From: a virus
Taxonomy: Duplodnaviria; Heunggongvirae; Uroviricota; Caudoviricetes
Length of the DNA stretch: 41,010 bases
Direction: 5' to 3' (one strand)
Virus record (IMG/VR): IMGVR_UViG_2529292921_000022
In this document: in pieces, positions 40,279 to 40,668 of the stretch
Position numbering within the stretch: the first letter of the stretch is position 1
How the letters are laid out: each line of letters begins with the position of its first letter
Notes under the pieces: generated by a model
Told to the model about the DNA's origin: nothing
The model's input: the letters and a program-made list of their open reading frames with translations, nothing else
Databases searched by the model: none
Position numbers and translations under genes: made by a program

Positions 40279-40409
40279 TTTTAACGTAAATGGATTGTTA
40301 AATGTATTTTGGTTGTGATATAACCAAAAAAGACCGGAATACAGAAATTCGAGTAAATTTCGGGGAATTTCGGGAAGACGTTTGCAACTGATTGATTTTA
40401 AATACAATT

Positions 40410-40511
40410 AAAAAAGACCGAATACGATTCCTGTATTCGGTCCAGGGAAATGGCTCTTGGGAGAGAGCCGTGCGCTAAAAGTTGGCATTAATGCAGGCTT
40501 AGTTGCCTTGC
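40410..40511 (-). ncRNA. sdsR: SdsR (RyeB) small RNA, putative
   Basis: Minus-strand transcript GCAAGGCAACUAAGCC...GACCGAAUACAGGAAUCGUAUUCGGUCUUUUUU with terminal 10-bp stem and U-run; matches my recollection of SdsR; sigma-S-like -10 CTATTCT upstream. Confidence 0.5.
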
Positions 40512-40597
40512 TCTTTAAGAATAGATGACGACGCCAGGTTTTCCAGTTTGCGTGCAAAATGGTCAATAAAAAGCGTGGGGGTCATCAGCTTAAATGT

Positions 40598-40638
40598 TAA
40601 AAACCGCCCGTTCTGGTGAAAGAACTGAGGCGGTTTTT
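40598..40638. terminator. Bidirectional rho-independent terminator
   Basis: GC stem ccgcc...ggcgg flanked by an A-run and a T-run; downstream of the yebY-like gene and candidate end of an antisense RyeA-like transcript. Confidence 0.5.
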
Positions 40639-40668
40639 TATTGGAAATCAAAAGGCTATTTTAGGTAA

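Follow-up and report, generated by a model that had tools for sequence, protein, structure and literature searches.

Positions 40279-40442 of the window analyzed here, a stretch of 41,010 nucleotides of caudoviral DNA (IMG/VR virus record IMGVR_UViG_2529292921_000022), are read by us, with a probability of about 0.85, as the place where the integrase-gene end of a Rac-like lambdoid prophage meets the terminator of sdsR (ryeB), a small RNA gene, with candidate arm-type sites for the integrase (Int) and a putative outward promoter on the phage side. The prophage would have entered by site-specific recombination of the tyrosine-recombinase type into the intrinsic terminator of sdsR, whose two stem halves would already amount to a pair of inverted core-type sites separated by a 7-bp loop. 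The strands would have been exchanged inside ACGATTCCTGT (40424-40434), everything to the left of the crossover being phage DNA. In the terms used for lambda, the junction would be attL, B-O-P′, here read on the opposite strand.

A phage that integrates in the last 23 bp of ryeB was described in 2008, so the phenomenon was already known, and the main finding is a textbook case of it, in which a hotspot first described in Salmonella is confirmed in E. coli at base resolution. The outward promoter and its proposed connection with the chromosomal promoter of ryeA (sraC), the antisense partner of sdsR, are the only part that might be new.

The prophage junction in the sdsR terminator

Four sites were compared: the empty bacterial attachment site (attB) of E. 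coli K-12 (L001), the complete lysogen NZ_AP042480.1 (L002) at both of its junctions, the window, and the phage attachment site (attP) of the free phage PP818812.1 (L003).

K-12, empty site: cagataaaaagaGACCGAACACGATTCCTGTATTCGGTCCAGGG
L002, pphA side: ...agaGACCGAACACGATTCCTGTtttcgtcaacaaac...
L002, yebY side, and window: ...acaattaaaaaa(a)GACCGAATACGATTCCTGTATTCGGTCCAGGG
L003, attP, between int and the tail-fibre genes: ...aaatacaattaaaaaaaGACCGAATACGATTCCTGTtttcgtcaacaaac...

At the pphA side of the lysogen, host sequence ...GACCGAACACGATTCCTGT gives way to phage sequence TTTCGTCAAC, and at the yebY side phage sequence ...GACCGAATACGATTCCTGT gives way to host sequence ATTCGGTCC; the attP of the free phage consists of the left part of the yebY-side junction and the right part of the pphA-side junction, exactly as predicted. 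Only one block, the 11 bp at 40424-40434 that include the terminator loop GATTCCT, is common to attB, attP and both junctions. It is bounded on the left by a phage allele (T40423, C in K-12) and on the right by a host allele (A40435, T in attP). To the left of 40424 the window and the K-12 attB diverge completely, and the free phage is 96.9% identical to the window from int to 40439, its P′ arm being collinear throughout, including the upstream repeat copy and the tandem repeats described below. By this sequence comparison, in which the prophage-free pphA-sdsR-yebY locus of K-12 serves as reference, the phage-host boundary is at 40424-40434, at the right-hand edge of the second of two similar segments noticed in an earlier sequence-only reading of the window. 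The crossover interval falls within the last 26 nt of sdsR and inside ryeA (annotated at L001 1567-1838 in K-12, where the common block is L001 1620-1630). The core forms a perfect 10-bp inverted repeat (GACCGAATAC / GTATTCGGTC) around the 7-bp spacer GATTCCT, a candidate overlap sequence; inverted stems flanking a loop are the classic layout of a tyrosine-recombinase core.

The same core stands at both prophage ends in L002 and was also seen in an E. coli-like pphA-side junction (L025), in keeping with the sequence-only reading, which had expected it at the far prophage end. L002, whose prophage lies between pphA and yebY, is collinear with the window; its base 10505, some 3 kb into the prophage from the pphA-side junction, corresponds to window base 201. 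In that lysogen the partner core adjoins pphA, about 41 kb from the junction seen in the window and about 3 kb past the window's left edge. Searches of the window for a second core with 33-mer, 16-mer and 11-mer patterns matched only 40410-40442; the window starts inside the baseplate genes, and the other prophage end is therefore absent from it.

Several points weigh against this reading of the junction. The core duplication was shown in a lysogen related at 98-99%, the other end of the present prophage lying outside the window, and the junction region finds no database match above 99.3% identity, with K-12 standing in for the empty attB of this host. In some hosts the left marker is T and not C; the crossover interval would then be wider. 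Lastly, the sole free-phage attP comes from PP818812.1, a record with an implausible host label. This record is named 'Actinobacillus phage vB_Apl-pPE4' and is 89-97% identical to parts of the present E. coli prophage; for the carrier of an attP that fits an enterobacterial sdsR terminator, the label looks doubtful.

The features of the locus are the following (window coordinates).

38949..39236, plus strand: xis, excisionase; open reading frame with Pfam match PF07825 Exc (E 6e-14), overlapping the start of int, called 'excisionase' in RefSeq lysogens
39202..40278, plus strand: int, lambda-type tyrosine integrase of 358 aa; open reading frame with PF00589, PF22022 and PF09003
40279..40423, no strand: P′ arm, phage DNA between the int stop codon and the crossover; collinear with the L003 attP, without a K-12 attB match left of 40424
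40318..40326, plus strand: extended -10-like element TGATATAAC in the direction of ryeA, conserved as TGnTAT(AAC/GGT); putative function
40326..40343, plus strand: 'pre-arm' element AAAAAAGACCGGAATACA, first copy of the sequence-only reading; identified by repeat statistics, present in the free-phage attP, conserved as GACCG(G)AATAY
40345..40374, plus strand: three candidate arm-type Int sites, AAATTCGAG at 40345-53 and AATTTCGGG at 40356-64 and 40366-74, in conserved register
40385..40397, minus strand: site with the consensus of integration host factor (IHF), AATCAATCAGTTG = WATCAANNNNTTR, between the arm repeats and the core
40409..40508, minus strand: sdsR (ryeB), Rfam RF00111, full length; 40409-40423 phage-encoded
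40416..40442, no strand: att core, the sdsR terminator hairpin; C-type GACCGAATAC at 40416-25, GATTCCT at 40426-32, B′-type GTATTCGGTC at 40433-42
40424..40434, no strand: interval assigned to strand exchange, ACGATTCCTGT, sole block identical in attB, both L002 junctions and attP
40424..40640, plus strand: host-derived body of ryeA (sraC); RF00101, 173.9 bits at 40406-40549; ends at a hairpin, 40599-40638 (inverted repeat I7)
40669..41010, minus strand: yebY, host flanking gene; open reading frame, annotated yebY in all matching E. coli genomes

The Rfam match of the small RNA (SdsR_RyeB, 115.2 bits against a gathering score of 38, model positions 1-100) and the comparison of K-12, lysogen and attP agree on integration at the 3′ end of sdsR by a phage with a lambda-type Int, as had been claimed from the sequence. 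This Int combines a catalytic domain (PF00589, 61.6 bits, residues 180-351), with the conserved His/Tyr region at its C-terminus, and an N-terminal arm-DNA-binding domain (PF09003 Arm-DNA-bind_1, 28.1 bits at a cut-off of 22, residues 3-61), and is ~39-42% identical to the Ints of HK022, HK97 and the other lambdoid phages listed. The last ~15 nt of SdsR (40409-40423), that is, the 3′ stem half and the U-tail, are phage-encoded. Compared with the K-12 terminator, the phage version turns one G·U pair into A-U and the tail into six uninterrupted U, and the terminator predicted for the lysogen has the same 11-bp stem as that of K-12 and refolds equally well. Because attP brings its own 3′ stem half and T-run, sdsR is predicted to retain a working terminator, and the earlier suggestion that the phage supplies a replacement end is borne out. 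On the other strand, phage DNA takes the place of the native promoter and the first ~53 nt of ryeA, which would lie beyond the prophage, at its pphA end. As a separate observation, the right stem half of the host in L028 is GTATCCGGTC, which gives an A·C mismatch with the phage-supplied left half in the rebuilt terminator and hints at differing sdsR terminator stems in some host genera, e.g., GACCGGATAC...GTATCCGGTC; the CCGGATA variant is also found in the pre-arm element of some arm families.

Elsewhere the prophage carries five more RNA genes at the level of Rfam: RalA, the antitoxin of RalR (38666-38844, minus strand), sok (25574-25747, minus), C4 antisense RNA (23207-23291, minus), isrK (23318-23391, minus) and DicF (33153-33204, plus).

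Arm repeats and the upstream copy of the terminator segment

The P′ arm contains the tandem repeat AATTTCGGG at 40356-40364 and 40366-40374, with a period of 10 and no other copy of the 9-mer in the window; the sequence-only reading had found this repeat, with coordinates off by one. It is preceded by a degenerate third copy, AAATTCGAG (40345-40353), that is obvious in relatives. Three attPs were compared, from phages with Ints 98%, 73% (Salmonella phage ZC-S1_prp) and 50% (Flyfo siphovirus Tbat2_3) identical to that of the window, and distant relatives were collected by tblastn on phage records and by an exact-core scan of IMG/VR. All three attPs have repeats at -85, -74 and -64 from the loop center, and two of the three a further copy at +141 to +143. 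An ungapped, core-anchored stack of all arm types gives the same register in about 20 P′ arm families, between which the repeat varies solely at its 3′ end (TTTCG-GG, -AG, -AC, -TG, or TTGGTG). In P arms the repeat recurs as 3-4 tandem copies between +120 and +160, and IHF-like sites lie near +35 and +100. The perfect IHF consensus WATCAANNNNTTR at 40385-40397 is one of two matches in the window; it lies at -45 in the attPs of L003 and of the Salmonella phage (L006) and is absent from the relative at 50% Int identity (L007).

That the repeats keep their positions, and that Int has an arm-binding domain, supports reading them as arm-type Int sites, as which the sequence-only reading had proposed them. 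The P′ arm would then follow the plan of lambda, from the core outward an IHF-type site and three tandem arm-type sites of 10-11 bp. The sequences also hint that the N-domain of Int co-varies with the repeat type, ...FYW/YYW going with GAG/GGG and ...TYAW/SYSW with GGAC. The conservation of these positions is an outcome of the comparison; from it we infer binding by Int and IHF, as well as the promoter activity and any pre-arm role considered below.

Further out lies the segment from which the sequence-only reading had started, and which it rightly described as a duplication: AAAAAAGACCGGAATACA at 40326-40343 recurs as AAAAAAGACCGAATAC at 40410-40425, the latter being the 3′ stem half and U-tail of the minus-strand terminator (11-bp stem, 7-nt loop). 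A repeat search returned the pair as direct repeat D2 (40318-40336 and 40402-40420, spacing 84 bp), and with one 1-nt gap the match extends to ATATAACCAAAAAAGACCGGAATAC / ATACAATTAAAAAAGACC-GAATAC. Its gapped local score is 28, compared with 13.4 ± 2.2 in shuffled arms (1 of 5000 shuffles reached this value), and the upstream copy is the top non-self match to the core across the whole window, the runner-up scoring 24. This pre-arm element is conserved as GACCG(G)AATAY directly before the first repeat in the Int lineages at 73% and 50% identity and in many others.

On the int side of the element, TGnTAT(AAC/GGT) occurs in most distinct P′ arms and ends 102-106 nt from the loop center; the spacer between this extended -10 and the pre-arm element is fixed at 7 nt in length and free in sequence, and the purine start is conserved. 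In the window, TGATATAAC is homologous in position to the -10 of K-12 ryeA, TATGGT, whose function was proven by mutagenesis (primer PM_RyeAF, TATGGT to CTCGAG, RyeA lost; PMC6610125). The K-12 element, gTGtTATGGT, lies at L001 1551-1559, and the mapped +1 is L001 1567, 7 nt downstream. We think that the upstream copy marks the start, near G40331, of a phage-driven hybrid RyeA; an extended -10 directed toward the core would re-create such an RNA starting near 40331. The likeness of the pre-arm element to the C site could reflect an extra core-type site for Int, an old half-core, or both.

Some results run counter to these promoter and element readings. A simple promoter scan gave no call at TGATATAAC; it called a sigma-70-like TTTGCA-16-TACAAT at 40381-40408 (plus strand), with a start at ~40415, at the core. 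The called element overlaps the IHF-like site, is not obvious in more distant arm families, and would be an alternative source of a 5′-shortened RyeA. RNAalifold, applied to 15 arm families, found only local hairpins and no covariation, with the pre-arm element unpaired, and across families the element does not co-vary with the arm repeats. An RNA role, by pairing of the 5′ end of hybrid RyeA with the core hairpin, gained no support from RNAalifold. We also rejected the pre-arm element as an inverted fourth arm-type site because of this missing co-variation, the element staying constant while the repeats switch between GGG, GAG, GAC, GTG and GGTG. A candidate for a core-like counterpart at the far end of the P arm, TATTTCAG(A/G)(C/T)C, turned out to be the fourth tandem arm repeat.

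One record, L056 (IMGVR_UViG_2728369554_000022), shows at ~8550-8565 a clean 84-bp deletion between two copies of AAAAAAGACCG. The arm repeats and the IHF-like site are gone, so that this prophage has probably lost the ability to excise, and the TGATATAAC element now stands directly before the core. Of the complete E. coli genomes listed as best matches, none has this deletion, all showing the normal two-piece arrangement.

The upstream copy can be explained in other ways. It may be nothing more than the region in which transcription from a phage-borne ryeA promoter begins (discriminator, +1 and first nucleotides), with a core likeness that is inherited or coincidental, an explanation to which we give a little less than an even chance. 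The fixed 7-nt distance to a conserved extended -10, across a spacer of free sequence, is the signature of a -10/+1 pair; the position equals that of the K-12 RyeA +1, 7 nt after the proven -10; and the element is retained in host flanks that lack int. What this explanation leaves unaccounted for is the recurrence of GACCG plus an A-run (C site and T-tail template) in at least six arm families. Since lysogeny by the Salmonella phage PhiW104 lowers ryeA expression (PMC7380047), any such promoter would be weak.

It is less probable, and in our judgment unlikely, that the upstream copy is a functional core-type Int site, a second 'C' at the far end of the P′ arm that would act in intasome assembly or in promoter occlusion. 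The pre-arm consensus (A)AAGACCGAATAY is nearly the C site (17 identical nt are common to both in L078), many Int lineages that share the core have kept the element through changes of the arm repeats (GGG, GAG, GAC, GTG), and its distance to C, 84 bp, makes ~8 helical turns with an IHF-like bend site in between. However, P arms have no counterpart of the element, and the arms of 'family B' retain just GAATAT or GGATAT at that position. Moreover, host-like fossil flanks without int keep GAATRC although their arm repeats have decayed, which suggests a constraint on transcription or on RNA.

More doubtful still is the idea that the phage passively carries a fossil half-core from an earlier event of integration or recombination. 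The similarity does run into the flanks (ATA.AA..AAAAAAGACCG), the locus clearly gathers fossils of earlier phages, and the clean deletion in L056 shows the copies acting as ordinary direct repeats; but position and -10 spacing are unchanged in Int lineages down to 50% identity, which is not expected of a passive relic, and the persistence of a deletion-prone repeat suggests selection.

The sequence-only reading had taken the two nearby copies for an att core duplicated by integration. They agree at 17 of 18 positions with one indel, and the second abuts the true crossover, yet both copies lie at the int-proximal end, and the unintegrated attP of L003 contains both of them with the intervening 84 bp, as do the attPs of diverged phages, the real second core being the one beside pphA in the complete lysogen. 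As the overlap sequences also differ (AGAAATT and GATTCCT), Int could not exchange strands between the copies; this proposal is refuted as stated, and we give it next to no credence. Chance similarity in AT-rich DNA is just as improbable: the repeat is short, its score was reached in 1 of 5000 shuffles and another window segment comes to 24 against 28, but position and sequence are conserved across many independent attP arms.

Users of the hotspot and related systems

The sdsR/ryeA locus, named as an insertion hotspot in the sequence-only reading, is indeed reported as one (Balbontin et al., 2008, as cited in PMC7380047 and PMC3603311). In Salmonella DT104, PhiW104 inserts into the last 23 bp of ryeB; its lysogeny alters the 5′ end of ryeA, lowers ryeA expression and raises that of ryeB (PMC7380047; PMC3603311). 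Furthermore, ryeB is among listed phage targets (PMC3603311), and islands have been named after RyeB (PMC10111431). Among 5426 complete E. coli genomes, pphA-sdsR-yebY is uninterrupted in 5189 and split in 237, and the int of the window adjoins yebY in 228, so that ~4% carry this prophage type at the sdsR site. A related-locus search of genome contigs returned two 95%-identical loci only.

An exact scan of IMG/VR for GACCGAATACGATTCCTGT found the identical 19-bp core in at least 120 viral contigs, with at least 107 distinct int-side flanks and at least ~35 distinct far-side flanks, and clustering of the flanks at 85% identity gave at least 41 arm types. Five contigs (L041, L060, L032, L125, L042) combine the identical core with a P4-like integrase lineage (MAIRKLNTGKW...) and with int-side flanks ending ...ccaaccaaaaaaa; their arms are unrelated and without TTTCG-type repeats. 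The terminator is therefore the target of two or more Int lineages, whose N-terminal sequences differ widely. In L018, ~7 tandem TTCCGT follow directly after CCTGT to the right of one of two cores, a microsatellite-like expansion at the crossover region.

The closest known system is PhiW104, whose target, the last 23 bp of ryeB/sdsR, is AAGAGACCGAATACGATTCCTGT on the plus strand, containing the present crossover block, and whose integration likewise replaces the 5′ part of ryeA; the attP of the Salmonella phage with the 73%-identical Int has the same arm layout as the window. Differently from PhiW104, the window holds an E. coli-type prophage with a Rac-like recET/ralR/kil module and arm sequences of its own, in which arm, IHF and -10 sites are predicted from sequence.

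The likeness to the lambda and HK022 intasomes extends to an Int with an arm-binding N domain, core-binding and catalytic domains, to xis beside int, to inverted core sites around a ~7-bp overlap, and to three putative P′ arm sites (64-85 bp from the loop center) and a candidate IHF site (~45 bp, like lambda H′) at distances similar to those in lambda, with putative arm sites and IHF-like sites in the P arm too. Unlike in these phages, the target is a small RNA terminator and not the attB between gal and bio, and Int is ~39-42% identical. The P1 and P2 arm sites of lambda are separated, whereas the P arm here has its sites in tandem, 3-4 of them between +120 and +160. The P′ arm also has, farther out than its third site, a core-like and an outward promoter-like element, neither of which is known to us from lambda.

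The same logic is found in integrases whose targets are the 3′ ends of tRNA and tmRNA genes (e.g., P4, P22, HP1), a symmetric stable-RNA stem-loop serving as core and attP restoring the 3′ end (reviewed by Williams, 2002, as cited in PMC3603311). In contrast to these targets, sdsR encodes an Hfq-dependent small RNA with an overlapping antisense partner, and restoring the 3′ end of one gene therefore necessarily replaces the 5′ end and promoter of the other.

The ryeA promoter and the end of int

In phages of family B, int ends in ...K-K-Y-L-D-A-R-G-A-E-Y-V-M-V-stop, and its last codons, taTGtTATGGTttag, constitute the extended -10. The K-12 -10, TATGGT, and ~65 bp upstream of it (L001 1494-1567) align with the last ~22 codons of intact family-B int genes (L008, L065, L059), the proven -10 falling on the codons of ...Y-V-M-V-stop. 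Host-like flanks of several species (L016, L088, L047, L036, L031) are collinear with the int 3′ end and the P′ arm and represent intermediate, decayed copies; they score 40-156 bits, with shuffle maxima of at most 30, and one of them includes a PphA-like phosphatase gene. Since direct blastn of the region upstream of K-12 ryeA against phage int ends was borderline (27.4 bits versus a shuffle maximum of 26.5), profiles were used. A profile built from 29 intact int ends of family B has as its top match in ~100 kb the promoter region of K-12 ryeA (L001 1495-1561; E = 0.013), and with five individually significant host flanks added the E value is 5e-5. The direction of descent is clear, because the C-terminus of Int is conserved as protein across Int lineages.

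Judged from these alignments, the chromosomal ryeA promoter looks like a prophage fossil. The wider proposition, that sdsR-targeting phages repair both small RNAs by means of an outward promoter, and that the promoter and 5′ end of enterobacterial ryeA, including that of K-12, are a fossil int end with its P′ arm, we consider evenly poised between true and false. No mention of such an origin was found in the searchable literature, to which Balbontin et al. (2008) contributed only through the papers citing it.

For the host, the arrangement would have several consequences. Expression of pphA depends mainly on read-through from the sdsR promoter (PMC6610125), and in the lysogen pphA would be cut off from that promoter by ~41 kb, while the native ryeA promoter and the first ~53 nt of the gene would point into the far prophage end. 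Studies of SdsR, RyeA and pphA in strains with this prophage thus face an SdsR whose end is phage-encoded and a ryeA promoter ~41 kb away. If the fossil origin is true, RyeA, an antitoxin-like RNA, is partly a domesticated piece of an attachment site. These side results, of moderate interest for specialists, suggest a concrete route from prophage decay to new or rewired regulatory RNA genes.

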